Shown: positions 39,730-64,000 of the stretch, piece after piece
Layout of the letters: the number at the start of each line of letters is the position of its first letter
Position numbering within the stretch: position 1 is the stretch's first letter
Assembly (NCBI GenBank): GCA_951406725.2
Contig: OX597821.1
Coordinates: 86,490,001 to 86,554,000 of the forward strand
DNA length: 64,000 nucleotides
Source: Octopus vulgaris
Taxonomy: Eukaryota
Direction of reading: 5' to 3'
Translations under genes and position numbers: made by a program
Notes under the pieces: model-generated
The model's input: only the letters and a program-made list of their open reading frames with translations
What the model was told of the DNA's origin: nothing
The model's database searches: none

Positions 39730-40168
39730 ATTGTTTTTATTTTCAGTTATGAAAATTATTTATTAAGTCGCACTTGGAAGAACATTTTGAACTCAGATAG
39801 TCAGTGAGTAAATGTAGTTTTTTTTTTAATGTCTGGAAAAACAGCGGAAAATAGTGTTTCATCCACTGTTGACAGATGTTCTTAGTGATTCCCATTAGTG
39901 AACGGTTAGGCAAAAAATAATCCTTAGAGTATGAACACCATTATTCATAATGAACTGCTTAGCTATAAATTCGAAATTGTGCTCTTTCTTCGACTGCAGT
40001 CCCCAAAAACTTTAGAAAAACGAAAAGAAAATCATTAAAGTATTATTTTAATATGGATTCCTTCAAATTAAAACATATAAAGATAATACCAAGGCTTGAA
40101 AAAGAATTATACATGTCTTCTCATGAACACATACATGCACGCACACGCACACACACACACTCTCTCTT

Positions 40169-41540: not shown

Positions 41541-41573
41541 ATTTTTAACCATGGCGGGCGTAATGTCTTCCGT
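41541..41573 (-). CDS. last coding micro-exon HGRHYARHG-stop (33 nt)
   Basis: ttttgtttctatctttgCAG / GTGAGT; TAA in phase 1, 4 nt before the donor. Confidence 0.68.
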
Positions 41574-44500
41574 CTGCAAAGATAGAAACAAAATGGCATT
41601 TTATGTCACTGTAATGATCAGTATCAATGTATGAGCGGTGGTTTTTTTGCTTTCAGTTTATTTCCCTGACCATGGATGTTCTGCTCACACCCCATTTTGA
41701 TCCGTGGGCTTTCTGATCGTCTGCTTAGGACTTTATTTCACCATCTTGTTCTTCTTGCTCAAGATCATTTTAAGACATTAAATTATTAGACTAAAGCATT
41801 TGTTTCCTTAATTGTTGCTATGTCGGATTCATACTAAGTTTTTTGATTTTTTATCTTTATACTGATTCCTTTTTAAGTTTCTTGTATTGAGACATAGGGT
41901 TTGTTATTTTAAATTCTGTAAGGTGAGCATTTGGAAAAAGACTTTTTTAGTGGATTAATTCATGATATTTCGTATTAGTTCCAGTGAAAATATTTATATT
42001 TACTGTATAATACATCATTATATTCGTAGTTAAATATTAATTGGTGACCCCCATCGGTCATGACACTGACCATGGGTTTGCACCTAGAGAGTTACCCTCT
42101 GAGGCACAAGTCTGGGCAAGGTTGTTTTATGGAAGACCAGCAGTCGCCCATGCATACCGGCCTCCCCTCTCCACATCACCGATGTTGTCCAAGGGAAAGG
42201 CAAGGGCCGATACAGCTTGGCACCTGTGACGTCGCAACTCATTTCTACAGCTGAGTGAACTGAAGCAACGTGAAATAAAGTGTCTTGCTCAAGAACACAA
42301 CACGCAGCCCGGTCCGGGATTCGAGCTCACAACCTCACGATCGTAAGCTCGACGCTCTAACCACTGAGCCACGCGCCTTCACACGGTGATAGATTACAAA
42401 TAAGCTATCTTCATTATACTAAATTATACTTTATGAATACATTCATTTAATTTATCAATTAATGGTAATAATAATAATGATAATAATATATGAATAATTT
42501 TACTTAATGACATATTGCAATAAAAAACATTTATTTTCAAGCGCGTATTTCTGGGGGTGGGGCTTAATAGCTAATTTATTTATAAATGTTTAAACTTTTA
42601 CTTACAGTTTTTTCCTCCGATAAACTAAGTAATTTAGTATTTGTTTTAGAAATTATTTATGTATTTATGATTAAGTAGATTACAACAATTATATATTTTT
42701 GAATAATTGTAAATATGTGAATTAATTGTAATACAAACTATTCTTAATAATTTTAATAAATTTTTTATGTACTTTATAGCTTGTATTCATACAGCAACAC
42801 TTAAATTTTGTTACATCTGAAAGCGATAAAATTTATAATCTCTTTATCTAAGAAATAATATAGGTAATATTTACCATAGATCCGATTTTCAAATTTCGAA
42901 CGTACAATTTTTTTTTAAGTACTAAAAACTGAGCAGGAGATATTCTATTTAAAATATTTTGGATTATGTCAAATAACCTAATATGATTACAGTAGATAGT
43001 TACTCCTTGAGATCAAATTTCGCCGATGTTAGTGCTGGATTTCGTCCTTCCGGAATGGATAAGGCAACTGTACCATTCATGTACTGAGGTCGATTCAATA
43101 AACTTTTCTCTCTCGTAAAAAAATAATTGAATTTATACCAATTTTAGAGATTAACTTAATGCAACCACGCATTAACTCTTCGCAGATAAAACATAATTCT
43201 AGATTGTTATACTTACGACGTCTATGCCAGCGCTTCCTATAGTGTCCAGCTGTATATTATAAAACAAAGTGAAACATCTTTAGGAGAAAATTATTACTTT
43301 TCGTATTTTATTTTCATTTGATTCTGGGAGATGGAAATAAATTATAAGATTTGATCAACTAATAATTTTGTAGATGAAATTTTGTGAGAAGAGTCGATTT
43401 GAAAGAATTTTAAATATTGAACTATAAGTACGGAAACTGGAAGCCAGTACTTAAACAACTAAACTTATTTTTTCGATTTCATTCCAAAATTCAATTAATC
43501 TTTTAATTAATCAAATGTATTCTACTTGCCATTCATTAATAATTTTGAAACGAACTTCAAACAGGTGAAAATATAATACAAAAATTACTTTTAAAACGGT
43601 TGGACATACATTACTTTGTTTGAGATCATTTGGATTTTATCAAGTAATCGACGTAGAAAAATTATGACTACGAAATAGTGTGTGACATTTGACGCCACAG
43701 CCGCCGAAATAATGTAGGACATCTTGCAATGAGTAATAACAGGATGCTCAATTGTCACACTGCAAAGTCATCAACATATGTTGTAAATGTAAAATAGGGC
43801 CGTTAAAGCAGTAGAAAGATTTATATATCTAATTTAATTGTATGGACCTACTAGCGCTCTATTGTATTATTACCTGCTGAGTGATCTACACGTTTTAAGA
43901 GTGTCGTTAGGAGATTGACATGTGTTGTGAATAACGAGAATCAAAGAGCGGTGGACAAAGTAACTTGTAGTATTTCGAAACCCACCAAAGATGGCTTTGC
44001 GTTTCCTTCTTACAGATTCCACGAAATATAAATATACCAAGTATTGTGACTAATTGATAAGCAATACATTTCCCAAAAAAACAATGCGTGGCTTTGTGTT
44101 TTTTTTTTTTTGTTTTTTTTTTCTAGTTTCAGCTCAGAGCTGCGGCCATGCTGATGCACCGCCGTTTTGTGCTACACTGTTATTGCGACGAACCTCGTCT
44201 AATATGTGGCACTTGGTGAAGAATGGAGTTTGATACAGCTACTCTCATTTGCACCTCTTGCCGTGAGGTAGGTTCATCTGGGACTCTTGACAGGAAGATG
44301 TCCAGCTTTGATTTAAAAACGGCTACATCTACTTGGTGCAAGTTCCTCAGACTCTTTGGGAGAATATTAAAAAGCTGTGGGCCCTTGAAACCCAGGCTGT
44401 TGCAGAAGCTGGTCCTGAAGCGTGATGGCATTGCTGGGATCTTTGGCACTATGCAGTGTCGTCCCGTTCTAGCATTGGTGTAGCTTACAATGCCAAAATT

Positions 44501-47500
44501 TGGCCCAATTCCTTCCGGGATCTTCCAGACATGTTAGAAATAAATTTTGAGAAAGGGTGAGAGATTTAGGGGCAATTTTCCGTTTGATTTAATCAACCTA
44601 GTGCTAGATCGGATCTAGTGTTATCAAACCCAGAAGATGAAAGGCATACAAGAAAATTTTTTTAAAAATTGAATTTATACCAATTTTAGAGATTAATTTA
44701 ATGCAACCACACATTAACTCATCGCAGATAAAATATAATTCTAGATTGTTATACTTACGACGTCTATGCCAGCGCCTCCTATAGTGTCCAGCTGTATATT
44801 ATAAAACAAAGTGAAATATCTTTAGAAGAAAATAATTACTTTTCATATTTTATTTTCATTTGATTCTGGGAGATGGAAATAAATTATAAGATTTGATCAA
44901 CTGATATTTTTGTAGATGAAATTTTGTGAGAAGAGTCGGTTTGAAAGAATTTTAAATATTGAACTATAAGTACGGAAACTGGAAGTCAGTACTTAAAAAA
45001 TTAAAATTATTTCTTCAATTTCATTCCAAAATTCAATTAACCTTTTAATTAATCAAATGTATTCTACTTGCCATCCATTCATCATTTTGAAACAAATTTC
45101 AATCAGGTGAAAATATGATACAAAAATTACTTTTAAAACGGTTGGACATACATTACTTTGTTTGAGATCATTTGGATTTTATCAAGTAATCGATGTAGAA
45201 AAACTATGATTACGAAATAGTGTGTGACATTTGACGCCACAGCCACCGAAATAATGTAGGACATCTTGCAATGAGTAATAACAGGATTCTCAATTCTCAA
45301 ACTGTAAAGTCATCAACATATGTTGTAAATGTAAAATAGGGCCGTAAAAGCAGTAGAAAGATTTATATATTTAACTTAATTGTATGGACCTACTAGCGCT
45401 CTATTGTATTATTACCTGCTGAGTGATCTACACGTTTTAAGAGTGTCGTTAGGAGATTGATATGTGTTGTGAATAACGAGAATCAAAGAGCAGTGGACAA
45501 AGTAACTTGTAGTATTTCGAAACCCACCAAAGATGGCTTTGCGTTTCCTTCTTACAGATTCCACGAAATATAAACATACCAAGTATTGTGACTAATTGAT
45601 AAGCAATACATTTCCCAAAAAACAATGCGTGGCTTTGTGCTTATGTTAGAAATAAATTTTGGAAAAGGATGAGAGATTTAGGGGCAATTTTCCGTTTGAT
45701 TTAATCAACCTAGTGCTAGATCGGATCTAGTGTTATCAAACCCAGAAGATTAAAGGCATACAAGAACATTTTTTTTTAATTGAATTTATACCAATTTTAG
45801 AGATTAATTTAATGCAACCACACATTAACTCATCGCAGATAAAATATAATTCTAGATTGTTATACTTACGACGTCTCTGCCAGCGCCTCCTATAGTGTCC
45901 AGCTGTATATTATAAAACAAAGTGAAATATCTTTAGAAGAAAATAATTACTTTTCATATTTTATTTTCATTTGATTCTGGGAGATGGAAATAAATCATAA
46001 GATTTAATCAACTGATAATTTTGTAGATGAAATTTTGTGAGAAGAGTCGGTTTGAAAGAATTTTAAATATTGAACTATAAGTACGGAAACTGGAAGCCAG
46101 TACTTAAACAACTAAACTTATTTTTTCGATTCCATTCCAAAATTCAATTAATCTTTTAATTATTCAAATGTATTCTATTTGCCATTTATTAATAATTTTG
46201 AAACGAATTTCAAACAGGTGAAAATATGATACAAAAATTACTTTTAAAACATTTGGATATACATTACTTTGTTTGAGATCATTTGGATTTTATCAAATAA
46301 TCGATGTAGAAAAACTATGATTACGAAATAGTGTGTGACATTTGACGCCACAGCCACCGAAATAATGTAGGACATCTTGCAATGAGTAATAACAGGATTC
46401 TCAATTCTCAAACTGTAAAGTCATCAACATATGTTGTAAATGTAAAATAGGGCCGTAAAAGCAGTAGAAAGATTTATATATTTAACTTAATTGTATGGAC
46501 CTACTAGCGCTCTATTGTATTATTACCTGCTGAGTGATCTACACGTTTTAAGAGTGTCGTTAGGAGATTGACATGTGTTGTGAATAACGAGAATCAAAGA
46601 GCAGTAGACAAAGTAACTTGTAGTATTTCGAAACCCACCAAAGATGGCTTTGCGTTTCCTTCTTACAGATTCCACGAAATATATAAACATACCAAGTATT
46701 GTGACTAATTGATAAGCAATACATTTCCCAAAAAACAATGCGTGGCTTTGTGCTTATGTTAGAAATAAATTTTGGAAAAGGATGAGAGATTTAGGGGCAA
46801 TTTTCCGTTTGATTTAATCAACCTAGTGCTAGATCGGTTCTAGTGTTATCAAACCCAGAAGATGATGGGCATACATGAAAATTTTTTTTAAAATTGAATT
46901 TATATCAATTTTAGAGATTAATTTAATGCAACCACACATTAACTCATCGCAGATAAAATATAATTCTAGATCGGTATACTTACGACGTCTCTGCCAGCGC
47001 CTCCTATAGTGTCCAGCTGTATATTATAAAACAAAGTGAAATATCTTTAGAGGAAAATAATTACTTTTCATATTTTATTTTCATTTGATTCTGGGAGACG
47101 GAAATAAATTATAAGATTTGATCAACTGATATTTTTATAGATGAAATTTTGTGAGAAGAGTCGGTTTGAAAGGATGTTAAATATTGAACTTAAGGTACGG
47201 AAACTGGAAGCCAGTACTTAAACAACTAAACTTATTTTTTCGATTCCATTCCAAAACTCAATTAATCTTTTAATTATTCAAATGTATCCTATTTGGTATC
47301 CGTTCATCATTTTGAAACAAATTTCAAACAGGTGAAACTAAAATATAAAAATTACTTTTAAAACAGTTGGAAATACATTACTTTGTTTGGGATCATTTGG
47401 ATTTTATCAAGTAATCGACATAGAAAAACTATGATTACGAAATAGTGCATGACATTTGACGCCACAGATTAATTTAATGGAACCGCACATTAAGTCTTCG

Positions 47501-50500
47501 CAGATAAATTATAATTCTAGTTTGGTATACTTATGAGATTTATTCCAGGGTTTCCTATAGTGATCTGTACATTATAAAACAAAGTGAAATATATTTAGAA
47601 GAAAATAATTACTTGTGGTATATTATTTTCATTTGATTCTGGGAGATGGAAATAAATGTGTGGCTTTGTGATTATGTTAGAAATAAATTTTGAAAAAGGG
47701 TGAGAGATTTAGGGGCAATTTTACGTTTGATTTAATTGATCTAGTGCTAGATCGGTTCTAATGTTATCAAACCCAGAAGATGAAAGGCATACAAGAAACC
47801 AGTGAAATTTGAAGACAAAGTTAATGGCATAAGGAAGCAATGTTGAATATGTAACCAGTTTTCTGTTGCTATGCCACTCTGCCGTGCAAATGTTAGTAAT
47901 AGAATTAATTTCTTCTTATATGAGCACAAAAGTGCTGTATTAAATGGGGGGAAAAAGTAGCATAGTGTGCTTAACCTATCCCCCAAAACCGTCAAAAACG
48001 CATGTGAAATGACTTCAATCATCCCGCTGTGTTTGGGTTTATGATATTTTATCTCTAAGTCTGGAGGTGGGACTTTACAAGTATGGTGAGATCAATGCAG
48101 GTGATGATCAGCTTTAACATGTGTGTATCTACAAGTGCCGGAAAATATGCTTAGGAAGAGAACTGCAGAAGGTTGCCAGCAGAAGAAATGATTGAGAGAA
48201 GTTCATCTAGTGGAATGTGGTACGCAACTAAGTAATTTATAGCAATGAAGGCAGTTATCGCATTAATAGAAACTGCAGAGAAAGGGACACTGCATATTTG
48301 TAGCTTATTGGCTGTTGTAAAGGAAATATTGTTGACACTGCTTTACAGTGGATATTTCTAGGCCGCTTTTTCCTTCTTAAGAAATAGCTTTAGAAATTTG
48401 GCAAGTAGTAAAGCTTCGTTAATCAACTTCAGCTTTCTGGTGGTCCACTATAGATAGATTTCTTCATTAAGTTACAGCCTTTTTATCATTTTGCTACAAA
48501 ATAGCTGCTGCGATATACCGTCTCATACTTCTTAATTGCCTTCAATTTACATTGAGGTGTTATTTTTATACGACAGAAATCATAATTATTTTATAAAATA
48601 CTAGCAGTATCGCCCGGCGTTGCTCGGGTTTGTAAGGGAAATAACTATATAAGCATTTTTAGAGAGTTACTTCTCTTATATAATAGCAAAAAAATGCATT
48701 AAAAATGGGCAAAAATGATGGTAAACTTTTTTTAAATCGTAGACTCATCGTAGACGCGCGCTAATACCCAGAAGGGCTCGATATGAATCACGACTATAAG
48801 ATACCCGCTTTTGGTTAAACTGCACCGCAAAATGTGGGAGTAGTTAGGAATCTAAATCGTAGGAGACAGACACTCACACAACTTCACTTTTATATATAAA
48901 GATATTGAAGCATTCGGTCTACAACTCATAGATAATATCATCGTGGTTAAAATGCTATTTTATATGTGTATAATTACGATGTCCATGTAAGTGTTGGCCA
49001 TGGTGTCCATCTGCATAAAACAAAATTTTATTAAGAGTAAGAGTTACCAATCAGGACATTATTCTCAAGAATCTGTCTAAAGTTTGACATTCAAAAAAAA
49101 AACCATCTTTTCATATAACAATTTTGTATAGGGAGAGTCAGTTGGAAAGAAATTTGATAGCTGAATTTAAAATACGAACACTCATGGACACTTAATATTG
49201 AAACAAATAAAATTTTGTTTTCTTCGATTTCATTCCGAAATTCAGTTGTGAGATCTTTAAAATTTTCAAATTTATTTCACATGCATTCACGATTTCGGTT
49301 TTAAGACAAAGCTTCTTTTTCTAAATTTCAAGTTTCAAACGAGAAAGAAATTTAAAAAAATCTGTGATTTGCTCACCCCAAAAAGGCATAAATAAACAGA
49401 AATTATTCTGTTTAGAATATCTTGAAATATGTAAAATAAGCACAAAGAAAATTGATATCATGACATATTTTACATCACAACCTAAGAATCGGTGTCCTTA
49501 CTATCGCGACTATTAATTGGATAGTTTATTCTCATAGCGCTAGAGACAGATATTATCTTGTAGAAGTAAAATGGCACAAGTAATAGTTGTATAAAATACA
49601 TAGAAATAGATCAAACTTAAATGTATAGATTTATAGACTCTCTATAGCGTAATTAGAAGCCTGTCTTCTGATTAAGTGATATATAAATGCTTAAAAACGA
49701 GCTATTGCCTTAAAAATGGTTCTGAATTATTAAAATCAGATATTGGGGGACAAAATAATTTACAGTTCTTCGAAACCCTAAAAAGGCTGATTTAGCCTTT
49801 CATTCTCAAGAAATTAATAAAATAAGTACCAACCGAGAATTAAAGTCGACACGATAGACAATACCTTTCCTCAAAAATGTGAGGCCTTCTGCCTACATCA
49901 GAAATAATTTGGGGAAATAATGGTCGATTTGGTTGAGGTGAGGTGGAAGGCGAGATTATAATCGAATCAACTTAGAACTAGATTGATTTTAATATTATCG
50001 AACCCTAAAGGGGCGAGATGGCAGAATCGTTAGCACGCCGAACAAAATGATTAGCGGCATTTCGTCCGTCTTTACATTCTGAGTTCAAATTCCGTCGAGG
50101 TCGACTTTACTTTTCATCCTTTCGAGGACGATGAAAATAGTACCAGATAAAAAAAAGTACCAGTTGGATACTGGGGTTGATGTAATCAACTTACCCCTCT
50201 CCCAAAATTGCTGACCTTGTGTTAAAATTTGAAATTAATATTATCGAATCCCGAAGGTGAACCACAAACCTGAGCCCCTCGGGATTTGAAGTCCAGAAAG
50301 TTCAAAAACGTAAGGAAATATTGAAGAGAATGTAATTTGTTGCGATGTCAATATTCTATACCGAGGGTATCGAGACATAAGTGAAATTATCTCATATTCC
50401 GCAGCACATAATAGATGTCTTAGGTTAAGATATTTTATTTGTGAGCCAAGTGAGATCAGTGTTGATGATGTTCAGTTTGAACATCTGTAGATCAACTGTG

Positions 50501-53500
50501 GAGGTGCAGTGGCCCAATGGTTAGGACAGTGGACTCACGGTCATAGGATCGCGGTTTCGATTCCCAGACCGGGTGTTGTGAGTGTTTATTGAGCGAAAAC
50601 ACCTAAAAGCTCCACGAGGCTCCGGCAGGGGATGGTGGTGATCCCTGCTGTACTCTTTCACCACAACTTTCTCTCACTCTTACTTCCTGTTTCTGTTGTA
50701 CCTGTATTTCAAAGGGCCGGCCTTGTCACTCTCTGTGTCACACTGAATATCCCCGAGAACTACGTTAAGGGTGCACGTGTCTGTGGAGTGCTCAGCTACT
50801 TACACGTTAATTTCACGAGCAGGCTGTTCCGTTGATTCGGATCAACCGGAACCCTCGTCGTCGTAACCGACGGAGTGCTTCCACAGATCAACTACGGAAA
50901 GAGAATTACAAAATCTTAAGAGCTGAAAGCTAGACGCTGAGACTGGTTTGTCTGGGAGTTGGTAGCATGCAACAAGCTAATTCAGAGCAAAAAAGGTCGT
51001 CATCATATCATAGAATATATAGAGAAATGACACTGCACATCTGATGTACTCCGCATCAAGTTTGATAAAAAAAAAAGTATTATGTAGACTTTGGCTAGTC
51101 GTAAAGCTTTGACAATCAACCCCAGCTTTCTGGTTGCCCAATCATTTTACAAACGAGTTATTGTGTTTGTGTACAAGGCTTTTATCATGCGACATTTTGT
51201 TAATATGTAGCTGCGATGTACATCCCCGTACTTTTTCCCTTTCGGTTTACTGAGATGCCATGATATAACAGGAAACAATGATTTCATGAGATTTTGAGGT
51301 AATCAGTTTATAATACATAAATAGTGTTCGATCATGTTATTTAGTTTCATCGGTTTGGTTAATTTTAATAAAAGTACAGGAATTAGACAACTGTTTGAAA
51401 ATATTTCAAGAAATCTTCTTTCATTCCAAGGTGATAAATCCTTAGCTTCTTGAATCCGGTTTACGTTGGAACAATACGTCTGACTAATTTTTAACAATGG
51501 AGATAGTTTCTTTAGCGTTTTGCTTTCGTAATACATTGATTTGTATTCTACCTTTTCGACTATACTCTTTACTCTTTTACTTGTTTCAGTCATTTGACTG
51601 CGGCCATGCTGGAGCACCGCCTTTAATCGAGCAACTCGACCCCGGGACTTATTCTTTGTAAGCCCAGTACTTATTCTATCGGTCTCTTTTGCCGAACCGC
51701 TAAGTGACGGAGACGTAAACACACCAGCATCAGTTGTCAAGCAATGCTAGGGGTACACAAATGCACACACATATATATATATACATATATACAACAGGCT
51801 TCTTTCAGTTTCCGTCAACCAAATCCACTCACAAGGCATATAGCAGAAGACACTTGCCCAAGATGCCACGCAGTGGGACTGAACCCAGAACCATGTGGTT
51901 GGTTAGCAAGCTACTTACCACACAGCCACTCCTACGCCTTGTAAGTTCTTGTTTTTTATGTAGTTTATAATTTAGTGTTTCAAATTTTATCACTAATTTT
52001 TAATTCCCTTTGTTTTCTGGACATGATATCATCGTTACACATCAAAATTACAGGAATTTGTAACTTTTTTTCTTATAAATAATATTTCATCGTTCAATTT
52101 ATAGCTTAAACTTGACTAAAGGTAATTAGGATTTAACTTTTCCATTTTGATATTCTAGAGGTATTTTGGTTTCTGCACAAAACTTTGACGTTTATGCTCA
52201 GATTTCGATCATATCTCAACCAACCGTGGCGATATTATCTCTTTACTATTGACGTGTATTTAATTTAATATATATGTTGGCAGTGTTCGATAGTTCAACG
52301 AAGTCTAAATTATAGTAATTCATAGCTTGAGTTTCCTTTCCTTTTATGTTTTATTGTATTGTATTGACATACTGCATAAGCATGCAGTGCGAGTAGTTCC
52401 TTATCGAAATTAATTTGGCTTATTTATACATCTATGCTAAAGTAATATATAATATTTATATACGCAAAACTATAATCATAACAGTATTTTGTCGCTCAAA
52501 AGTTTCTTATGCTGCCTTTATGAAAGCAATAATTATATGCGTTCAATTGAGCTGAAGTCTGCATTCACTGTGTGTGTGTGTATGTGCATGTATGTATGTA
52601 TGTGTGTTTGTGTGTATGTGTGTGTGCGCGTGTGTGTGTAAAATTTATTACCTACTGAAATATTTTGTTGCAGTTTAATAGATAGTTCTATAGAGGCGAA
52701 GAATTGGACAAAATATCGTCCAGTAATTATATATCAACTTTTCTGCTTTCCGATCAAATTCCGCTGACGTCAATTTTGGTTCTCAACTTTCCCGAATGGA
52801 TAAAATATAGTTCCAGCCAAGTATATGCTATACCCTTCCGTATACAAAAATTAGCCTTTTAATAGTATTAGATATCAATACATAGAAATATCACATATTG
52901 GATCCTGTAGTAAAAATGTTATTTTAGATGCACTTACGATGTCCAGGCCAGTGTTTGTCAGGATATCCAGGCCAGTGTTTGTCGGGATATCCAGGCCAGT
53001 GTTTGCCATGATGTCCATCTGTATATTATAAAACAAAGCAAAATATATTTAGAAGAGAATAATTCCCTGTCAGGACATTATTTTTAGTTTATTCTGGATT
53101 AGAAGACTAAAGTATGAGATACATTTAGCAATTGTCACATGCCGATTTTTTTTAGTTCAATTGTAAGAAATGAATATACAGAACTTAAAATGCGAAAAGA
53201 AAGCAAAAGTGAATATTTAATCAACTGAAATTATTTATTTTATTAATTTCATTTTGAATTTCAATTTTATTTTATATTCTCTAGTGACTTCCTTTTAAAA
53301 CGATACATTCATATTCTGAGTTTCGAATTTCAAACGGACGAAAAAAAAATTATAAAAAAAAGATTACTCAAAATAAATAACCAGAAAAAACTTAACAGTT
53401 CAAATATAAGAGGTACTTTAATTATATCAGTGGTTGGTTATAATGAAGTTAAATATTAATATTTAACGTATATATAAATTGAAGATGTAAGATGATGGCT

Positions 53501-55489
53501 TTAGAAATATCGACAAATTTTAATCGAGTTTAATTTTATAATTATTCTCAACTTGTTTTTTGTGTTTCGAGTTATTAAATGTACCGAACATACTTAAATA
53601 ACATGAAATACGTAAAATATTTATTGCTAAAGGATTAATGAACTTATTCATAGATTTATGTTAAAGGGTATGTAATATTAAGATACTTACGTAACAATAT
53701 TTCTATAGAATCGTAACCGTTTCTTTTTTTCAGCTCAGCTATTTCATGTTATGGTATGAAAGCAATTATATGCGTTCAAACTTGAAACTAACATTTACAC
53801 TTACCAATATCTGTATATATTAGGTTTATCACCCATTGAGGGGTTTTATTGTACCTTAATACAAATAGCTATTAAGACAGCGTTATTGCTGAATCGTTGG
53901 AACGTCATATAAAATCCTTTACAGAATATAAGTAGCTATACCTACTTTGTCCTAAGTTGAAATTCTTCTATGTCAATGTTAGCTTTCTTTCTTTCTTCCG
54001 GAGGGAATAAGTTAAAATGCTAGCCGAGTATTGATTTCGATTCAATATACTTTATTCTCTCATCGAAAATATCTAGTCTTGTACAAATGTCAGAAGTTAA
54101 CATAGAAAGTTACATATTAACTTTTCACGATTAAAATATGATTCTAGGTTTGTTTTACTTACGATCTCCATGCCAGTCAACGTCATGATCTTCACCTATA
54201 TATTAGAAAACAAAGCGGAAATATCTTTAGAAAAACAATATTAACTATCAAGATATTATTTTCAGTTTAAAATACTAGTTTCATTTAGCTAATATTTTCA
54301 TAAAACAAATTTTATCTGGTAAGAGTTAATTGAAGACATGAATATATAAAATTTAAAATACAAACATTAATCGAGAACATATTTAAACAACTGAAGTTAT
54401 TGATTTTTCCGTTCCATTCCGAATTTCAGCAACAATCTTTAAAACTTTTTCGACGGAATTCGATTTCACATTCTCTTGTGAATTTGATTTAAGTCAAAAC
54501 ACATGTTCAAAATTTAAATATTCAAGCGGACCATAAATGGAGAAAAATAAATAAGAATTTTTTTAATATTTAAAATAAATAAATAACCAGAAAATATTCC
54601 TTTTAGAATATTTTGGATGATGTCAAATAATCAATACAGAACTAGTTTTTATCACAACCAACGAAATAATGTAGATGTGGCGGCGTGCTATCAAGATTAT
54701 TAATTTCAATTTTATTTTTTTAAATTTTTGACTGAATTCGATTTTATATTCTCTAGTGACTTCCTTTTAAAACGATACATTCATATTCTGAGTTTCGAAT
54801 TTCAAACGGACGAAAAAAATTATAAAAAAAGTTTACTCAAAATAAATAACCAGAAAAAAATTAACAGTTCAACCATAAGAGGTACTTTAATTATATCAGT
54901 GGTTGGTTATAATGAATTTAAATATTAATAATTAACGTATATATAAATTGAAGATGTAAGATGATGGCTTTAGAAATATCGACAAATTTTAATCGAGTTT
55001 AATTTTATAATTATTCTCAACTTGCTCATAATGTTAAATTATCTTGTAGATGTAAAATAATACATTTAGAATTGCAGAAAAGACAGATTTAATTTGATTA
55101 TACGGGCTTGCAGGAGCTCCATAGTGCATTCAGTAATACGTTAAATCATATATGTGCAAAGGTCAGCTTGTGGGTTGTCGGTTGCTTTGAATAAGCAGAA
55201 TCACAGGATAGTAAACGAGATAATTAATGGTATTTTGAGACCGGACACTATTTTCTTGAGTTTATTTCCTGTCTTTTATCTTGTATTATTTTGTTAATAT
55301 ATCTACGAAATATATATACTCATAGGCGCAGGAGTGGCTGTGTGGTAAGTAGCTTGCTAACCAACCACATGGTTCCGGGTTCAGTCCAACTGCGTGGCAT
55401 CTTGGGCAAGTGTCTTCTGCTATAGCCCCGGGCCGACCAATACCTTGTGAGTGGATTTGGTAGACGGAAACTGAAAGAAGCCTGTCGTA

Positions 55490-55571
<82 letters not shown>

Positions 55572-57513
55572 TGTGTCTGTGTTTGTCCCCCTAGCATTGC
55601 TTGACAACCGATGCTGTTCGGCAAAAGAGACCGATAGAATAAGTACTGGGCTTACAAAGAATAAGTCCCGGGGTCGATTTGTTCAACTAAAGGCGGTGCT
55701 CCAGCATGGCCGCAGTCAAATGACTGAAACAAGTAAAAGAGTAGGTACAATTATATAGAGAAAACACTTCGGGACAGCTAATCAAAATCATAAAGAAAAT
55801 GTACTGGAAGACAGTCAAGTGAACAATTTTAGCTTTATTTATTTATTGATAAGATTGAAAGTAGTTGATACATCTTCAGAAATCCTTACACTTTCCATTG
55901 AATGTTATGAAATACCAACGATAAATTCTGAACTTCTTGAACTAATATTCTGTTTCGTTGAAGCCATATATTAGTCTGATTTATTTATTATATTTGAAGG
56001 ACAGCCTCTTCAGCATTATATATTTTCAGTACGCCGAGTTATACTTTACTCTTTCACCAAAGGTTGTAAATTCCTGTCTCTGATCTAGTTCTTTATTTAG
56101 CATTAAGCATGAGGATTTATATATTTACTATTGACGCAAATTTAAGATATGTTGATAGATTTGGAAAGTTTCGACAGGATTTAGCTGTAATTAAATTTCA
56201 TAATTATTCATAGCTTGAGATTTCTTCTATTTTTGCCTTTCTTTTAAGAGTATGTTATCGTACATACTTCATAAACATGCAATACGAAGGAAGCTTTACC
56301 GAAGAGCTATTTGGCTCATTTACACATACTTAATTTAATGATAATCTTTCGATCCAAGGAAAATGGTTCTGCAATTTCTTGCTCAATACTTTATACAGAG
56401 GATTTGCTTATAGTGATCAAATGCTTGTGCTGCACATAAGTTCACTTACTCCATTAAACTGATTTTGCCTTTACAGATGTGCGGTGTGCCACACGTCAAG
56501 TGCCGAAGTGATCGTATACACATACATACTGAAGTATATATCTAATCATTAAATACGGAAAAATATTCGCATAAAACTTTACCAGCTTTTTACAGCTCAG
56601 CTATTTCATATGAAGGTAAGATGACTTTGTGAAAACTATATACGTTCAGACAAAAAACTGAAGTCTGCATGTATGTATATATGTATGTATTTATGTATGC
56701 AATTATACCTGTATATATGTATGTATGAAGTTTATCATCCATTGAAAGATTTTGTTATAGTTTACAGAAGTATTAGGATGGCAAATGATAGGTTAGAATG
56801 ATCGTTAGAGCGTCGGACAAAATACGTTGCAGTAGTAAGCTACAACCTTATAATTTCTGAGATCAAATCCTGCAGATGTCAGATTTAGCTTTCATCCTTT
56901 AAGAGTGGATAAAACAAAGTACCAGTCAAGTGCTGAGATCGATTCAATATACCATACCCGCTTGTCAATAATATGTAGCTCTGTACCAATGTTACAAATC
57001 AATATATAGAGATATAGCATATTAATTTTTCGGTAAAAAGGTTATTTTAAATTTCTATACTTACGAGGCCGTCGCAGACGTCGACCCCAGCTACCGGGGT
57101 GAAGATCTCTAGCTGTATATTATAAAACAAGACGAAATGGATTGAGAACAGTAACTCCGAGTGAGAATTTGTTTTTGTTTTGTTTTTGTCTTTTTTGTTG
57201 CGTTTTGCTGTTGTTTTGTGTGTGTGTGTGTGTGTTTTTTTTTTTTTTTTGGTTTTGTTCTTTCTTTCAAAGTTGAGGAGTAAAATCTGAACTTCACACA
57301 ATTACTCTTTTACTCTTTTACTTGTTTCAGTCATTTGACTGCGGCCATGCTGGAGCACCGCCTTTAGTCGAGCAAATCGACCCCGGGACTTATTCATTGT
57401 AAGCCCAGTACTTATTCTATCGGTGTCTTTTGCCGAACCGCTAAGTGACGGGGACGTAAACACACCAGCATCGGTTGTCAAGCAATGCTAGGGGGACAAA
57501 CACAGACACACAA

Positions 57514-57544
<31 letters not shown>

Positions 57545-58002
57545 TATATATATAAATATATATATATATATACATATATACAACAGGCTTCTTTCAGTTT
57601 CCGTCTACCAAATCCACTCACAATGTATTGGTCGGCCCGGGGCTATAGCAGAAGACACTTGCCCAAGATACCACGCAGTGGGACTGAACCCGGAACCATG
57701 TGGTTGGTTAGCAAGCTACTTACCACACAGCCACTCCTGCGCCAATTGATAATTTTTATAATATGAGTTATATTTGATGATTGGAAAACCTCTATTTGTA
57801 AGAAACTCCGAATTCAAATCGAAAAATGATATTTAAAATCTAAAATAATTCTTTGTTAGCTTCCATACCGAATTTCAATTACAATATTTTTCGATTCAGT
57901 TTGATTTCATTTTGATTTCCCATTCACTCACGATTTCAATTTTAAGAAACAATTCTCATTTCTCCATTTTAAATTACAAATAGAGAAGTAATGATAGAAA
58001 AC

Positions 58003-58063
<61 letters not shown>

Positions 58064-58229
58064 GGCGTAGGAGTGGCTGTGTGGTTAAATAGCTTGCTTA
58101 CGAACCACATGGTTCCTGGTTCAGTTCCACAGCATGGCACCTTGGGCAAGTATCTTCTGCTATAGCCCCGGGTCGACCAAAGCCTTGTGAGTGGATTTGG
58201 TAGACGGAAACTGAAAGAAGCCCGTCGTA

Positions 58230-58268
<39 letters not shown>

Positions 58269-58274
58269 TTGTGT

Positions 58275-58315
<41 letters not shown>

Positions 58316-60137
58316 TGTGTCTGTGTTTCTCCCCCCAATATTGCTTGACAACCGATGCTGGTGTGTTTACGTCCCCGTCACTTAGCGGTTCGGCAAAAAG
58401 AAACCGATAGAATAAATAGTAGGCTTACAAAGAATAGGTCCTGGGGGTCGATTTGCTCGACTAAAGGAGGTGCTCCAGCATGGCCACAGTCAAATGACTA
58501 AAACAAGTAAAAGAGTAAAAGAGTATAATAACAAGGAACGAAAAATATTCTTCACAGAATACTTTGGATTATGTCAAATAATAGTTGCAGAAGTGAAGTG
58601 TTATATGAAATAACTGAAGAATAGCTACGTGGTATATTCCGTAGGGCGGCGAGCTGGCAGAAACGCTAACACGCCGGGCGAAATGCTTAACGGTATTTCG
58701 TCTGCCGCTGCGTTGTGAGTTCAAATTCCGCCGAGGTCGACTTTGCCTTTCATCATTTCGGAGTCGATAAATTAAGTACCAGTTACGCACTGGGGTCGAT
58801 GTTAGCGACTTAATACCTATGTCTGTCCTGTTTGTCCCCTCTGTGTTTAGCCCCTTGTGGGTAATAAAGAAATAGGTATTTCGCCTTCCGCTACGTTGTG
58901 AGTTCAAATTCGCCGAGGTCGACTTTGCCTTTCATCCTTTCGGAGTCGATAAATTAAGTACCAGTTACGCACTGGGGTCGATGTAATCGACTTCATACCT
59001 ATGTCTGTCCTAGTTTGTCCCCTCTATGTTTAGCCCCTTGTGGGTAGTAAAGAAATAGGTACATTCCTCTTCCCAAGCAGGGAAGAATTTACTATCATAA
59101 ATAGTAGTCTGCCCGCCTAGCTGTTTGGTTGAAGAGAACTAGAAAAAAATAAGAGAAATTACATGTAGTTTATTAATCAGCCGGTCATTGGCCCACAGTA
59201 AGTATTTTATTAAAATAGGATTTGTTAAGTAAAATAATAAACAATAAATAGTTTTAAATTGAAGGGAAGTAACTAAATACTTAACACTAGCGCTAAATGA
59301 CTTGTATGTAACAGTGCGAATGGTAAGGCTCTAAACACCTACTGATAGAGGTGCCCATCGATTGCTACATTTTTGCATAAAAGTGTTGACCCTTGCAGGA
59401 CTGAAAAGTCACATGGATGCTGCTATAAGAGAGCAATCAAGCGATGGTATTCCGCAGAATTGGGTTGCAGTCATCATGTATGCATGTATGTATGTATGCA
59501 TGTATGCATGTATGTATGTATGCATGTATGCATGTATTATGTATGTATGTATGTATGCATGTATGTATGCATGTATGTATGTGTGTATGTATGTGTGTGT
59601 ATGTATGTGTATGTGTGTGTATGTATGTATGTATGCATGTATGTATGCATGTATGTATGTATGTATGCATGTATGCATGTATGTCTGTATGTATGCATGT
59701 ATGCATGTATGCATGTATGCATGTATGTATGTATGTATGCATGTGTGCATGTATGTATGTATGTATGTATGTATGTATGTATGCATGCATGTATGCATGC
59801 ATGTATGTATGTATGTAATGTATGTATGTATGTAATGTATGTATGTATGTATGTATGCATGTATGCATGTATGTATGCATGTATGTATGTATGTATGTAT
59901 GCATGTATGTATGTATGTATATGTGTGCGTTTACGTGTATGCATGCATGTATGTATGTATGTATGTATGTATGTATGCATGTATGTATGCATGCATGTAT
60001 GTATGTATGTATGTATGTATGCATGCATGTATGTATGTATGTATGTATGCATGTATGTATGTATGTGTGTGCGTTTACGTGTATGCATGTATGTATTGTA
60101 TTGTATATATGTATGTGTGTGTGTTTGTGTGTGTATG

Positions 60138-60168
<31 letters not shown>

Positions 60169-62701
60169 GTGTCTGTGTTTCTCCCCCCAATATTGCTTGA
60201 CAACCGATGCTGGTGTGTTTACGTCCCCGTCACTTAGCGGTTCGGCAAAAGAAACCGATAGAATAAATAGTAGGCTTACAAAGAATAGGTCCTGGGGTCG
60301 ATTTGCTCGACTAAAGGAGGTGCTCCAGCATGGCCACAGTCAAATGACTAAAACAAGTAAAAGAGTAAAAGAGTATAATAACAAGGAACGAAAAATATTC
60401 TTCACAGAATACTTTGGATTATGTCAAATAATAGTTGCAGAAGTGAAGTGTTATATGAAATAACTGAAGAATAGCTACGTGGTATATTCCGTAGGGCGGC
60501 GAGCTGGCAGAAACGCTAACACGCCGGGCGAAATGCTTAACGGTATTTCGTCTGCCGCTACGTTGTGAGTTCAAATTCCGCCGAGGTCGACTTTGCCTTT
60601 CATCCTTTCGGAGTCGATAAATTAAGTACCAGTTACGCACTGGGGTCGATGTAATCGACTTCATACCTATGTCTGTCCTAGTTTGTCCTCTCTATGTTTA
60701 GCCCCTTGTGGGTAGTAAAGAAATAGGTACATTCCTCTTCCCAAGCAGGGAAGAATTTACTATCATAAATAGTAGTCTGCCCGCCTAGCTGTTTGGTTGA
60801 AGAGAACTAGAAAAAAATAAGAGAAATTACATGTAGTTTATTAATCAGCCGGTCATTGGCCCACAGTAAGTATTTTATTAAAATAGGATTTGTTAAGTAA
60901 AATAATAAACAATAAATAGTTTAAATTGAAGGGAAGTAACTAAATACTAAACACTAGCGCTAAATGACTTGTATGTAACAGTGCGAATGGTAAGGCTCTA
61001 AACACCTACTGATAGAGGTGCCCATCGATTGCTACATTTTTGCATAAAAGTGTTGACCCTTGCAGGACTGAAAAGTCACATGGATGCTGCTATAAGAGAG
61101 CAATCAAGCGATGGTATTCCGCAGAATTGGGTTGCAGTCATCATGTATGCATGTATGTATGTATGCATGTATGCATGTATGTATGTATGCATGTATGAAT
61201 GTATGTATGTATGTATGTATGTATGCATGTATGTATGCATGTATGTATGTGTGTATGTATGTGTGTATGTATGTGTATGTGTGTGTGTATGTATGTATGT
61301 ATGCATGTATGTATGCATGTATGTATGTATGCATGTATGCATGTATGTCTGTATGTATGCATGTATGCATGCATGTATGCATGTATGCATGCATGTATGT
61401 ATGTATGTATGTATGTATGTATGTATGTATGCATGCATGTATGTATGTATGTATGTATGTATGCATGCATGTATGTATGTATGTATGTATGCATGTATGT
61501 ATGTATGTGTGTGCGTTTACGTGTATGCATGTATGTATTGTATTGTATATATGTATGTGTGTATGTATGTATGTATGTATGTGTATGTATGTGTGTATGT
61601 ATGTATGTGTGTATGTATGTATGTATGTATGTGTGTATGTATGTGTGTATGTATGTATGTATGTATGTATGTGTATGTGTGTGTATGTATGTATGTATGT
61701 ATGTATGTATGTATGCATGTATGTATGTATGTGTGTGCGTTTACGTGTATGCATGTATGTATTGTATTGTATATATGTATGTGTGTATGTATGTATGTAT
61801 GTATGTATGTATGTATGTATGTATGTGTGTATGTATGTGTGTATGTATGTATGTATGTGTGTATGTATGTATGTATGTATGTATGTATGTATGTATGTAT
61901 GTATGTATGTATGTATGTATGTGTGTATGTATGTGTGTATGTATGTATGTATGTATGTATGTATGTATGTATGTATGTATGTATGTATGTATGTATGTAT
62001 GTATGTGTGTATGTATGTATGCATGTATGTATGTATCTCCAAGTTTATGCATAGATAGAAGCAATAAATTCGCTATTACACAGAGAACGACTTTTACGAT
62101 CATACTTCAACACGCACTCACTCACACACGCATGCGCTCGCAATCATTCACATACACACACACGCAAACACACACACACAAACACACATATACACACACA
62201 CATACACACACAAGCACACACACACAAACACACATACACACACACACATACACACACAAGCACACACGCAAACACACACACACACGCACGCAAATACACA
62301 CACACACATACAAACACACAGGCAAACACAGACATACAAACGCACATACATACACACACAAACACACACGCAAACACACACACACGCACGCAAATACACA
62401 CACACACACACAAACACACAGGCAAACACAGACATACAAACGCACACACATACACACACAAACACACACGCAAACACACACACACGCACGCAAATACACA
62501 CACACACACATACAAACACACAGGCAAACACAGACATACAAACGCACACACATACACACACAAACACACACGCAAACACACAAACACACACGCAAATACA
62601 CACACACACATACAAACACACAGGCAAGCACAGACATACAAACGCACACAAACACACACAAACACACACAAACACAAATACACACAAACACACACACACA
62701 A

Positions 62702-62732
<31 letters not shown>

Positions 62733-62949
62733 AACACACACGCAAATACGCACACACACACACATACAAACACATACGCAAACATACGCAGACACACACA
62801 CACACACACACACACATACAAACACACAGGCAAACACATACATACAAACGCACACACAAACACACACACAAACACACACAAACACACACGCAAACACATA
62901 CACACGCAAATACACACACACACACATACAAACACACACGCAAACATAC

Positions 62950-62985
<36 letters not shown>

Positions 62986-63071
62986 CACCTATAATTCTGC
63001 GCATCTGTTAATTGATTCTTAATTTGCATACTTACATTTTCTCCGCGAGGGTTCTCGTACGCGTTTTTCGT
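41545..63071 (-). CDS. Micro-exon gene encoding a His/Arg/Trp/Gly-rich repeat peptide (5'-incomplete); exons in transcript order 63071-63036, 57112-57065, 54195-54163, 53018-52938, 49010-48978, 47016-46984, 45902-45870, 44791-44759, 43249-43217, 41573-41541 (stop at 41547-41545)
   Basis: Each segment has a T-rich ...YAG acceptor and a GTAAGT/GTAATT/GTGAGT donor on the - strand, and every length (33, 36, 48, 81 nt) is a multiple of 3. The phase-1 join is open for 130 aa to a TAA; phase 2 has stops; phase 0 is also open but compositionally incoherent. Confidence 0.72.
42045..42383 (-). mobile_element. tRNA-derived SINE
   Basis: reverse head gtgaaggcgcgtggctcagtggttagagc...ctcgaatccc. Confidence 0.7.
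43217..43249 (-). CDS. micro-exon PGHYRKRWHRR (33 nt)
   Basis: ataCAG / GTAAGT in the ~1.1 kb tandem unit. Confidence 0.72.
44099..44530 (-). mobile_element. 5'-truncated LINE (CR1/L2-group-like ORF2 3' end) inserted in one tandem unit
   Basis: poly-T at left (poly-A on the - strand); ORF NSLGFKGPQLFNILP...FKSKLDIFLSRVPDEP; sister units show the empty site gctttgtgcttatgttag. Confidence 0.85.
44759..44791 (-). CDS. micro-exon PGHYRRRWHRR (33 nt)
   Basis: ataCAG / GTAAGT in the ~1.1 kb tandem unit. Confidence 0.72.
45870..45902 (-). CDS. micro-exon PGHYRRRWQRR (33 nt)
   Basis: ataCAG / GTAAGT in the ~1.1 kb tandem unit. Confidence 0.72.
46984..47016 (-). CDS. micro-exon PGHYRRRWQRR (33 nt)
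   Basis: ataCAG / GTAAGT in the ~1.1 kb tandem unit. Confidence 0.72.
47535..47564 (-). pseudogene. decayed micro-exon (HHYRKPWNKS) with dead donor
   Basis: acceptor intact (tgtaCAG), but donor is ATAAGT instead of GTAAGT; 30 nt; lies in a partly deleted repeat unit. Confidence 0.6.
48601..48902 (-). mobile_element. non-autonomous Helitron
   Basis: A|TC...hairpin...CTAG|T on the - strand; same end as 5256 and 29924. Confidence 0.75.
48978..49010 (-). CDS. micro-exon HGHHGQHLHGH (33 nt)
   Basis: ttttgttttatgCAG / GTAATT. Confidence 0.7.
50498..50884 (+). mobile_element. SINE family C with 9-bp TSD
   Basis: TSD agatcaact at 50489-50497 and 50885-50893. Confidence 0.88.
51563..51938 (-). mobile_element. 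SINE family A
   Basis: homology to other copies. Confidence 0.85.
52938..53018 (-). CDS. micro-exon HGHHGKHWPGYPDKHWPGYPDKHWPGH (81 nt, internal 24-nt repeats)
   Basis: ttgttttataatataCAG / GTAAGT; 33 nt + 2x24 nt. Confidence 0.75.
53268..55025. repeat. near-identical ~285-bp direct duplication (~53268-53555 / ~54742-55025)
   Basis: attctctagtgacttcc...attattctcaacttg occurs twice. Confidence 0.88.
54163..54195 (-). CDS. micro-exon REDHDVDWHGD (33 nt)
   Basis: ttgttttctaatataTAG / GTAAGT. Confidence 0.72.
55325..55743 (+). mobile_element. SINE family A
   Basis: homology to other copies. Confidence 0.85.
57065..57112 (-). CDS. micro-exon SRDLHPGSWGRRLRRP (48 nt)
   Basis: ttgttttataatataCAG / GTAAGT. 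Confidence 0.72.
57303..57743 (-). mobile_element. SINE family A
   Basis: homology to other copies. Confidence 0.85.
58063..58522 (+). mobile_element. SINE family A after (AAT)n
   Basis: homology to other copies. Confidence 0.85.
58315..62035. repeat. near-identical tandem duplication (~1.7-1.85 kb) ending in (TATG)n tracts
   Basis: 58329 matches 60181 and ~59467 matches ~61135; includes SINE A tail, SINE B and an RTE-like 3' fragment (LAGLKSHM). Confidence 0.9.
62122..62981. repeat. compound (CA)-rich satellite
   Basis: higher-order ~60-bp periodicity of CA/CAAA/CGCA units. Confidence 0.95.
63036..63071 (-). CDS. micro-exon xEKRVREPSRRK (36 nt)
   Basis: ttgttttatcatatcCAG acceptor (similar to the other units), GTAAGT donor. 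Confidence 0.6.
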
Positions 63072-63295
63072 CTGGATATGATAAAACAATGCAAATTTAT
63101 TAAGAAAAACAATTACTGATACTTTTGCGCGCACGAAGACATTTTACATTATTTATTTATCTATTTATTTATTTGTTTGTTTATTTATTTATTTACTTAT
63201 TTATTTTTGAAATGTGGACCAAGTGATTTACATTTGAAATTGATGATAATGAGAGTTTTCATAAGTCGAATAAACTGGTTGAACGAGTTCGTTTG

Positions 63296-63334
63296 AAAGA
63301 AAGAAAGAAAGAAAGAAAGAGAGAAAGGATGGAA

Positions 63335-63383
<49 letters not shown>

Positions 63384-63403
63384 GAGAGAAGGAAAGAAAG
63401 GAA

Positions 63404-63449
<46 letters not shown>

Positions 63450-63740
63450 GAAGGAAAGAAAGGAAGGAAGAAAGAAAGAAAGAAAGGAAGGAAGGAAGAA
63501 AGAAAGGAAGGAAGGAAAGAAGGAAGGAAGGAAGGAAGGAAAGAAGGAAGGAAGGAAGGAAGGAAGGAAGGAAGAAAGAAAGAAAGAAAAAAAGAAAGAA
63601 AAGAAAGAAAAAAGACGAAAGAAAGAAAGGAAGAAAGAAAGGAAAGAAAGGAAGGAAGAAAGGAAGAAAGGAAGGAAGGAAGGAAGGAAGAAAGGAAAGA
63701 AGGGAGGAAGGAAGGAAGGGAGGAAGGAAAGAAGGAAGAC
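63296..63740. repeat. (GAAA/GGAA)n polypurine tract
   Basis: direct. Confidence 0.95.
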
Positions 63741-63826
63741 AGAAAAATGAAGGGAATGTGAACATACGAGGTGGATTGAAAGAGTTGCAGGACTAGTAAT
63801 GCATAAATTTAAAAAATTAACTTATC

Positions 63827-64000
63827 TACTCTTTACTCTCTTTACTTGTTTCAGTGATTTGACTGTGGCCATGCTGGAGCACCTCCTTTTAGTCGAGCAA
63901 ATCGAACCCAGGACTTATTCTTTGGAAGCCTAGTACTTAATCTATCGGTTTCTTTTGCCGAACCGCTAAGTTACGGGGACGTAAACACACCAGCATCGGT
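63827..64000 (-). mobile_element. SINE family A tail (truncated by window edge)
   Basis: actctttactcttttacttgtttcag... tail. Confidence 0.8.

Follow-up and report, generated by a model that had tools for sequence, protein, structure and literature searches.

A single-copy micro-exon gene of Octopus vulgaris encoding a predicted secreted peptide rich in His, Arg and Trp

A 64,000 nt stretch of the Octopus vulgaris contig OX597821.1 (positions 86,490,001 to 86,554,000; hereafter the window) carries on its minus strand part of a micro-exon gene that is real and spliced in public RNA data. The gene comprises twelve coding exons with a total of 477 coding nt, all of lengths divisible by three and all separated by phase 1 introns, encoding a precursor of 158 residues (Table 1). 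Nine of the twelve are 36 nt or shorter and together make up 60% of the coding sequence, or 69% when the signal exon is left aside.

Gene structure, splicing and reading frame

The ten minus-strand segments spread over 41541-63071 in the original prediction are all present, each of a length divisible by three and flanked by a YAG on the acceptor side and a GT on the donor side. C is the last base of all eight internal segments, and the ten, joined in phase 1, encode 130 aa, among them 25 His, 31 Arg and 9 Trp and no Cys, reproducing the earlier hand count. The statement that the acceptors are mostly of one motif stands for six of the ten, where the quoted motif is exact; the other four deviate. 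Two features had been overlooked, a donor-less eleventh copy and a GT donor immediately after the stop-bearing exon. Applied to the 27-kb gene span, a splice-pattern rule built from these same elements, and hence partly circular as a test of chance, matches 11 times on the minus strand and never on the plus strand; 134 kb of flanking DNA, with both strands included, yields one match. The predicted gene model also includes untranslated exons at either end: the candidate first exon is unique and had no RNA match, and the candidate last exon, also unique in the genome, has a pyrimidine-rich acceptor and AATAAA at +68 and +91.

Table 1. Features of the micro-exon gene. Coordinates are window positions unless prefixed C8; the extended numbering continues that of the window.
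Feature	Coordinates	Strand	Remarks
Candidate untranslated first exon and TATA box	C8:86565230-86565173	-	TATA-plus-donor scan; predicted only
Signal-peptide exon, 72 nt	C8:86558434-86558363 (extended 68434-68363)	-	phase 1 donor
Basic micro-exon, 24 nt	C8:86555781-86555758	-	beyond the window
In-window end of intron leading to exons beyond the window	63072-64000	-	
Basic micro-exon, 36 nt	63071-63036	-	upstream joint in RNA contig (run X16)
Basic exon, 48 nt	57112-57065	-	joined to 54195 exon in RNA (run X7); RxxR at end, completed across the joint
Acidic His-rich micro-exon, 33 nt	54195-54163	-	both joints in X7 contig 26
81-nt exon	53018-52938	-	24-nt tandem repeat within the exon (His/Trp/Pro/Gly/Tyr); X7 contig 26 shows the joints at both ends
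His/Gly micro-exon, 33 nt	49010-48978	-	weaker splice sites, GTAAT donor; putative inclusion
Dead exon copy	47564-47535	-	3 nt shorter, with AT in place of the donor GT; acceptor preserved
Arg/Trp/Tyr repeat exon 1, 33 nt	47016-46984	-	identical to repeat exon 2
Arg/Trp/Tyr repeat exon 2, 33 nt	45902-45870	-	matched by X7 contigs 25 and 26, indistinguishably from repeat exon 1
Arg/Trp/Tyr repeat exon 3, 33 nt	44791-44759	-	
Arg/Trp/Tyr repeat exon 4, 33 nt	43249-43217	-	
Last coding exon, 33 nt	41573-41541	-	TAA 4 nt ahead of GT donor; no RNA joint seen
Candidate untranslated last exon	39832-39720	-	predicted only; 3′ end approximate

Five of the 11 exon junctions are joined in RNA contigs at the predicted GT-AG sites, including both joints that link the signal exon, the 24-nt exon and the 36-nt exon, which lie in one contig of run X16; nothing aligned on this upstream stretch in runs X6, X7 and X8. 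X7 contig 26 joins position 52938 straight to an Arg/Trp exon without the 49010 exon, and is the sole contig spanning it. In four of four RNA runs there was coverage of the bins holding the 81-nt exon and the 54195 exon and none of two intron-only bins, 44936-45502 and 46070-46636; for run X15, depth was low in certain other bins within introns. One contig joins the 48-nt exon to itself at low depth. Both this joint and the missing 49010 exon might reflect a variant pool made by exon skipping, but an allele or an artefact would fit them equally. The alignment covered 7 of 24 runs. Sixteen RNA-type runs contained 0.14-0.17 of the words of a 401-nt probe, a fraction close to what the 81-nt exon contributes; five runs of the same label contained none, a difference not taken as tissue restriction.

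A tandem repeat whose edges happen to resemble splice sites, rather than a real gene, is a reading of the segments that is already largely refuted, and its remaining probability is negligible. Over about 1 kb, identity among the four Arg/Trp units is 92-96%, as in any young tandem duplication, and six of the 11 joints were not directly seen, however five joints occur in RNA at predicted GT-AG sites and one of these leads to an in-frame signal exon. The signal exon, a single-copy sequence, lies beyond position 64000 as had been predicted; its ATG (extended 68423, 11 nt in) opens 20 codons plus 1 nt and imposes phase 1. The His/Arg frame, previously assumed, is therefore fixed, since RNA contigs join this exon to the body of the gene. 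The phase 0 reading is rejected, as it is closed by three stops within the signal exon. Joining the exons in any of the 66 ordered pairs creates no stop.

Copy number, exon evolution and database records

The gene is single-copy in the genome. A search for paralogues found the acceptor motif ten times in the genome, seven of them in the gene, and the other three without an exon array. The exons arose through duplication of exon plus intron, with one copy having lost its donor. The four Arg/Trp exons differ at 0-2 of 33 bases and their flanks at 3-15 of 196, giving no sign of fast exon change relative to flanks in these young repeats. With about 5 synonymous sites per exon, a test for faster exon change gave one clear pair of seven, 54195 versus 47016 (52% versus 26% mismatch), a result biased by gapped flanks.

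The only database record matched is CAI9727123.1 (UniRef100_A0AA36B4B3), labelled as O. vulgaris 'Mediator subunit 23'. Residues 1-93 correspond to two Med23 exons that lie 27-31 kb further upstream than the signal exon, and residues 95-152 to four exons of the micro-exon gene. The signal exon and the 48-nt exon are missing from the record, whose end is a read-through of the dead copy. It is a chimeric gene model fused to Med23. Run against 63 candidates of 78-2000 aa, a profile built from seven exon frames, of which four were padded by intron read-through, matched this chimera only, and residues 95-152 found only themselves among proteins of 92-296 aa and nothing among those of 30-91 aa. Among 1.84 billion representatives, eight matched the 33-aa frame from the 81-nt exon at E<=0.001, all of them unrelated repeats, and the ESM Atlas gave no usable match by features (best TM 0.50). 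No homologue was thus found, in agreement with the predicted lineage specificity as far as these searches reach; the queries (single exon frames, the profile and the chimera part) are short and of limited reach, and diverged relatives may escape them. Motif and accession terms were not found in the main texts searched, a set with most subscription papers outside it, and the marker motifs do not occur in the readable supplements from work on skin mucus, on ink and, in two studies, on salivary glands; these studies give filtered lists, and their databases may lack the protein.

Composition and possible function of the product

The product is predicted to be secreted, with a 20-residue leader judged from hydropathy alone (GRAVY 2.52, 80% aliphatic, a basic residue near the start). 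The mature part of 138 aa has a pI of 11.9, no Cys, 30% Arg+Lys, 18% His, 12% Trp+Tyr, 31% Gly+Ala+His, a GRAVY of -2.5 and an aliphatic content of 4%, with almost no Ala or Leu, three Ser and no Thr. It consists of a basic block (residues 21-57), a His/Gly/Asp block (58-106; 49 residues, pI 6.4, 49% Gly+Ala+His) and four Arg/Trp/Tyr 11-mers (107-150) with a charge of about +19 at pH 8.1. On the charge-hydropathy plot the chain lies far on the disordered side (0.22 versus 0.49 for the line). Modelled as helices the Arg/Trp repeats are not amphipathic, 40-54% of shuffles scoring as high. No Pfam domain, chitin-binding domains included, was found in the five exon frames scanned.

The reading favoured, tentatively, is a secreted host-defence polycation that would kill or trap microbes and carry Cu/Zn-binding histidines. 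The leader would be cut after residue 20, releasing a probably disordered chain whose Arg/Trp repeats would bind anionic microbial surfaces and membranes and whose His block would chelate metal. Cleavage by convertases at two of the RxxR sites may free Xaa-Xaa-His N-termini, a copper/nickel site, and exon skipping or exon gain and loss could shift the mix of modules with the frame always kept intact. Membrane action is a property of Arg/Trp-rich peptides, and Xaa-Xaa-His binds Cu(II). Xaa-Xaa-His follows two of the four RxxR sites that lack a subsequent Pro, Lys or Arg (sites 39 and 54), an arrangement that His content alone could produce. Cys-free cationic defence peptides are described in molluscs, including the Arg/Pro/Tyr-rich myticalins (PMC12294457) and the non-amphipathic, dibasic-repeat molluscidins (PMC11767717), and the His-rich histatins are mainly considered antimicrobial (PMC13637037). 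Counting against a defence role are the single copy, because defence peptide genes are often diversified families, the lack of any sign of fast change in the Arg/Trp exons, the non-amphipathic repeats, the low aliphatic content, and the absence of the marker motifs from the mucus, ink and salivary-gland supplements.

The octopus product resembles myticalins and molluscidins, which these sources describe from bivalves and abalone, in being Cys-free, linear, strongly cationic and rich in Arg and aromatic residues or dibasic repeats (PMC12294457, PMC11767717). Expression in the gill and antimicrobial activity are further characters of that group. Myticalins are described as having a signal peptide, a cationic mature peptide, a dibasic site and an anionic extension at the C-terminus encoded in three exons, with an untranslated first exon, only predicted in the octopus, and a phase 1 intron in the coding region as further points of likeness (PMC12294457). 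However, the C-terminal half of the octopus chain is basic and there are twelve coding exons, and identity as a myticalin is rejected on these grounds. Like histatins, the product is predicted to be secreted, is rich in His and basic residues, lacks Cys and is encoded by small exons; no homology to histatins was found. SCPP-type genes have untranslated first and last exons, a stop in the second-last exon, phase 0 introns and a Ser-x-Glu motif. The predicted octopus model shares the first two of these features, however it differs from the histatin/SCPP type in having no Ser-x-Glu, phase 1 introns throughout, and a mature chain several times longer.

The main rival, itself rather unlikely, is a secreted building or glue component of egg-string cement, sucker or beak cuticle, or similar, in which a cation-His-cation triblock, once released into seawater, would condense with a polyanion (sulfated polysaccharide or acidic protein) by way of Arg-aromatic, His-Tyr and His-metal contacts. 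The chain is repetitive, rich in Gly, His, Tyr and Trp and predicted to be disordered, and near-identical repeats in a single-copy gene suit a material protein. Squid beak proteins HBP-1 and HBP-2 are reported to exceed 50% Gly+Ala+His with a pI of about 6 (PMC11931252) and to phase-separate via His-Tyr contacts (PMC6884462). They share with the octopus product a cephalopod origin, Gly/His repeats, and secretion and disorder, both predicted here, and the central block alone comes near them in pI and Gly+Ala+His share. Beak protein genes are reported in squids only, with none found in O. bimaculoides, which leaves space for a substitute (PMC9068888), and octopus egg slime is described as peripheral-gland mucoproteins plus sulfonated mucopolysaccharide (PMC8976471). 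However, the whole chain has no GHGxY or GAGFA, is hydrophilic where HBP-1 and HBP-2 are hydrophobic, and is far more basic; identity as a squid beak protein is rejected, and the kinship to cephalopod beak proteins raised in the original prediction fails on motifs, Gly+Ala+His share, pI and hydropathy. The scarcity of Ala and Leu and the lack of a chitin-binding or other Pfam domain in the five exon frames scanned also speak against a material role, as does the description of egg-slime proteins as Ser/Thr-glycosylated mucoproteins (PMC8976471), given how little Ser, and no Thr, the mature chain contains.

It is improbable that the product mainly serves to hold or move copper or zinc within a secretion or granule, the basic blocks acting only as an anchor. 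The central block holds 15 His in HH, HxH and HxxH spacings, Xaa-Xaa-His termini are possible, and a cluster of copper monooxygenase genes adjoins the gene on the opposite strand; however close to two thirds of the mature chain is rich in Arg, not His, it was the Arg/Trp exon that recent duplications multiplied, and an opposite-strand neighbourhood is no evidence for a common function. A salivary or venom-gland polycation against prey cells is distinctly improbable. The product is lineage-restricted, highly cationic, repeat-built and predicted to be secreted, traits common in venom peptides, and the missing marker motifs in the supplements of the two salivary-gland peptide studies are a weak negative. 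Still more remote is a neuropeptide-type precursor yielding short repeated signal peptides by dibasic cuts, for which the signal peptide, the repeats and 18 dibasic positions would speak; against it stands a single Gly-basic-basic amidation site that lies outside the repeats. In addition, complete cleavage would yield fragments only two to four residues long, and three of the four repeat ends read Arg-Arg-Pro, where Pro after the cleavage site blocks convertases.

Likeness to schistosome micro-exon genes and significance

The gene resembles schistosome micro-exon genes (MEGs) in that symmetric exons of very small size come after one for the signal peptide, in a secreted product, here a predicted one, and in possible in-frame skipping of any exon. 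The MEG design also includes protein variants generated through the skipping of exons, and exons that diverge faster than introns. Schistosome MEGs are described as multigene families directed at the host and said to be restricted to flatworms (PMC4350168), whereas the octopus gene is single-copy, belongs to a free-living mollusc and encodes a strongly cationic product. Protein database searches, with short queries of limited reach, gave no homology to a MEG family, and the likeness is in design only. A bolder and unlikely form of the defence reading is that a micro-exon gene of the schistosome style evolved independently in the octopus to serve its own defence, with phase 1 cassettes as modules of a combinatorial antimicrobial library. 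The modules would be a copper-binding, pH-switchable His block and a membrane-active Arg/Trp repeat; skipping, gain and CpG-driven loss of cassettes would diversify peptides from one gene, and convertase cuts at exon joints would expose copper-binding N-termini.

This gene represents a class lost by annotation, and proteomics against CAI9727123.1 would miss the signal peptide and the Arg/Trp half and report the middle as Mediator subunit 23. Few cephalopod antimicrobial peptides are described as characterised (PMC11767717), and Octominin is reported to be a redesigned fragment of another protein (PMC7024321). If the product is a defence peptide, a natural, dedicated gene-encoded Arg/Trp/His peptide would fill this cephalopod gap, and synthesis and tests would be possible immediately; should it be a material protein instead, it would be a candidate for the octopus replacement of squid beak proteins, or for egg cement. 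Either way, it is a micro-exon gene for a predicted secreted product outside flatworms.

Exon layout and spliced RNA

The ten minus-strand segments were recovered at the positions of the original prediction, each with a T-rich acceptor, a GT donor and a length that is a multiple of three, and the counts given for their phase-1 join (130 aa, 25 His, 31 Arg, 9 Trp and no Cys) proved exact. The signal exon predicted past position 64000 was also located, consisting of 20 signal-peptide-like codons plus one base and leading to a phase-1 donor; with a 24-nt exon it brings the coding model to 12 exons. Exons are named here by their start coordinates in the window (G000:C8:86490001-86554000 of the 2.8-Gb genome), and coordinates above 64000 carry the window numbering on into the sequences beyond it, L001-L010. 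Because the signal exon begins at an acceptor, an untranslated exon is expected further upstream; the first and last untranslated exons are both predictions.

Features of the micro-exon gene and its neighbours
Feature	Position	Strand	Basis or remark
Candidate untranslated first exon	75230-75173	-	TATA-led, unique; predicted
Signal exon, 72-nt	68434-68363	-	Scan for ATG, hydrophobic run and donor; 2.6 kb upstream of 24-nt exon
24-nt exon	65781-65758	-	Donor weight matrix; same splice family
Dead exon copy	47535-47564	-	AT in place of donor GT
Stop-bearing exon	41541-41573	-	33-nt unit; GT donor follows stop-bearing unit
Candidate untranslated last exon	Acceptor at 39832	-	Unique acceptor, two AATAAA signals; predicted
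Two Med23 exons fused into CAI9727123.1	Extended 99079-98945, 95964-95821 (L004)	-	
Copper type II monooxygenase exons	15427-15612, 21359-21466	+	From the last of at least five clustered gene copies

A splice-pattern rule matched the minus strand of the gene span 11 times, its plus strand not at all and the flanking DNA, 134 kb in length, once; the rule was derived from these same elements and is therefore partly circular, whereas the RNA evidence is independent of it. Microsatellite arrays of about 3 kb surround the 36-nt exon (window 59476-63745), and repeat masking would likely hide this exon.

In run X16, taken by guess to be RNA, a 332-nt contig covers the entire signal exon with no mismatches, its length suggesting a 40-letter leader followed by the signal exon and the five exons downstream of it (together 334). 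The joints 68363 to 65781 and 65758 to 63071 occur in X16 at a depth equal to that of the contig, with GT-AG ends on the minus strand. Contig 26 of X7, an RNA run by its record, matches 57094-57063, 54193-54163, 53018-52938 and one Arg/Trp exon, in order and with no mismatches. Spliced RNA joints, proposed as the check on the gene, were found for five of the model's 11, and one of these bypasses exon 49010; the RNA contigs examined showed neither the joint 63036 to 57112 nor those leading to the last repeats and to the final coding exon. Exon 49010, a predicted exon with the lowest acceptor score of all, is missing from contig 26 and is therefore skipped or absent in that transcript. The bins holding the 81-nt exon and exon 54195 are covered in 4/4 runs. 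Two bins made up of intron alone have no coverage in 4/4, and run X15 shows low depth in some further intron bins. One contig, on an Arg/Trp exon, measures 63 nt, a length that points to a head-to-tail 33-nt repeat. A low-depth 78-nt contig of X7 joins the 48-nt exon (window 57065-57112) head to tail to itself, which may reflect back-splicing, an allele with the exon duplicated, or an artefact.

Just four X7 contigs matched, compared with 669 to 22,067 in the other three runs (mostly on interspersed repeats), so the bulk of the X7 RNA may be non-octopus and the transcript possibly carry-over; the X7 contig is evidence of the spliced form, not of cross-species conservation.

Origin of the exons

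Alignment shows the exons to be duplicates of a single unit comprising exon plus intron. Identity among the four Arg/Trp units is 92-96% over up to 1.8 kb, the older units 54195, 53018, 57112 and 49010 align at 66-84% over exon and flank, and an internal 24-nt repeat enlarged the 81-nt exon. Each of the 66 ordered pairs of exons can be joined with the frame kept and no stop created. Frame 0 is open through all eleven body exons (window 41541-63071), where it reads as acidic and Asp/Ile/Thr/Gly-rich, and is closed in the signal exon; its openness is probably a by-product of repeat duplication.

A C stands directly before the donor GT in 9 of 12 donors, making the joint a CpG. Between the dead copy and its live neighbour 8/29 aligned bases differ, partly at CpG sites, versus 13/100 in the flanks (p = 0.06), and a CpG transition would be the simplest cause of its donor loss. 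Where exon and intron divergence were compared, over few sites, one pair suggests faster exon change but the young repeats do not.

Database record and neighbourhood

Searched with sections of the sequence, protein databases returned a single record, P0009 (CAI9727123.1), which is labelled Octopus vulgaris, named Mediator subunit 23 and identical letter for letter to exons of the micro-exon gene. This predicted protein is chimeric, combining two exons from Med23, four from the micro-exon gene and the dead copy; because of this fusion, the Med23 annotation at the locus is probably broken as well. A 100-base N run lies between the two genes (extended 93059-93158, in L003). Med23 is the upstream neighbour, and on the other side, tail to tail, copper monooxygenase genes form a cluster of at least five (G000:C8 86.20-86.52 Mb; four copies on the plus strand, one on the minus); we take them to be dopamine beta-hydroxylase/MOXD-like.

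Searches of the genome with the signal and 81-nt exons and with the acceptor motif turned up no second copy of the gene. The marker motifs and the accession occurred in no main text searched, nor were the motifs found in the readable portions of the supplements of PMC10138644, PMC11525497, PMC10142993, PMC7693380 and PMC8976471.

The protein and its putative role

The precursor has 158 residues and can safely be considered secreted; a cut past residue 20 gives a mature chain of 138 aa with N-terminal Gln (computed 17.7 kDa, pI 11.9) that contains 34 Arg, 25 His, 17 Gly, 12 Pro, 9 Trp and 8 Tyr, with Cys, Met, Phe and Thr absent, and falls well inside the disordered range by charge-hydropathy. 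Three blocks track the exons: a basic block (21-57), a His/Gly/Asp block (58-106; pI 6.4, charge -4.7 at pH 8.1 and +7.6 at pH 5.5) and four Arg/Trp/Tyr 11-mers (107-150; charge about +19), the amphipathicity of which is no higher than in shuffled versions. RxxR sites at 39 and 54, each followed by Xaa-Xaa-His, lie at or beside exon joints, in a number within chance.

Once secreted, a polycation that lacks Cys, is rich in Arg and aromatic residues and carries a His block may serve host defence. This role is favoured by analogy, though with somewhat less than even confidence, because the make-up matches that of myticalins, molluscidins and histatins (PMC12294457, PMC11767717 and PMC13637037), and because recent duplications multiplied the Arg/Trp module; its single copy and young repeats without diversification count against it. 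Its strongest rival, possible but less probable, is a material formed by coacervation. In bulk properties the middle block is similar to squid beak proteins (PMC11931252 and PMC6884462), no gene for a beak protein was found in an octopus according to PMC9068888, and the sulfonated polysaccharide of octopus egg slime, described in PMC8976471, could condense with a polycation. The suggested kinship to cephalopod beak proteins did not hold, however, as the gene lacks their defining features. Metal handling is unlikely, venom slightly more so, and a neuropeptide precursor very improbable.

Under host defence, action would probably be like that of a histatin or myticalin, although the gene lacks the defining features of myticalins, as it does those of SCPP genes and amidated precursors. 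Its design is like that of the micro-exon gene (MEG) families described in PMC4350168, and no homology to these families was found. The octopus locus is a real, expressed, mis-annotated orphan gene.
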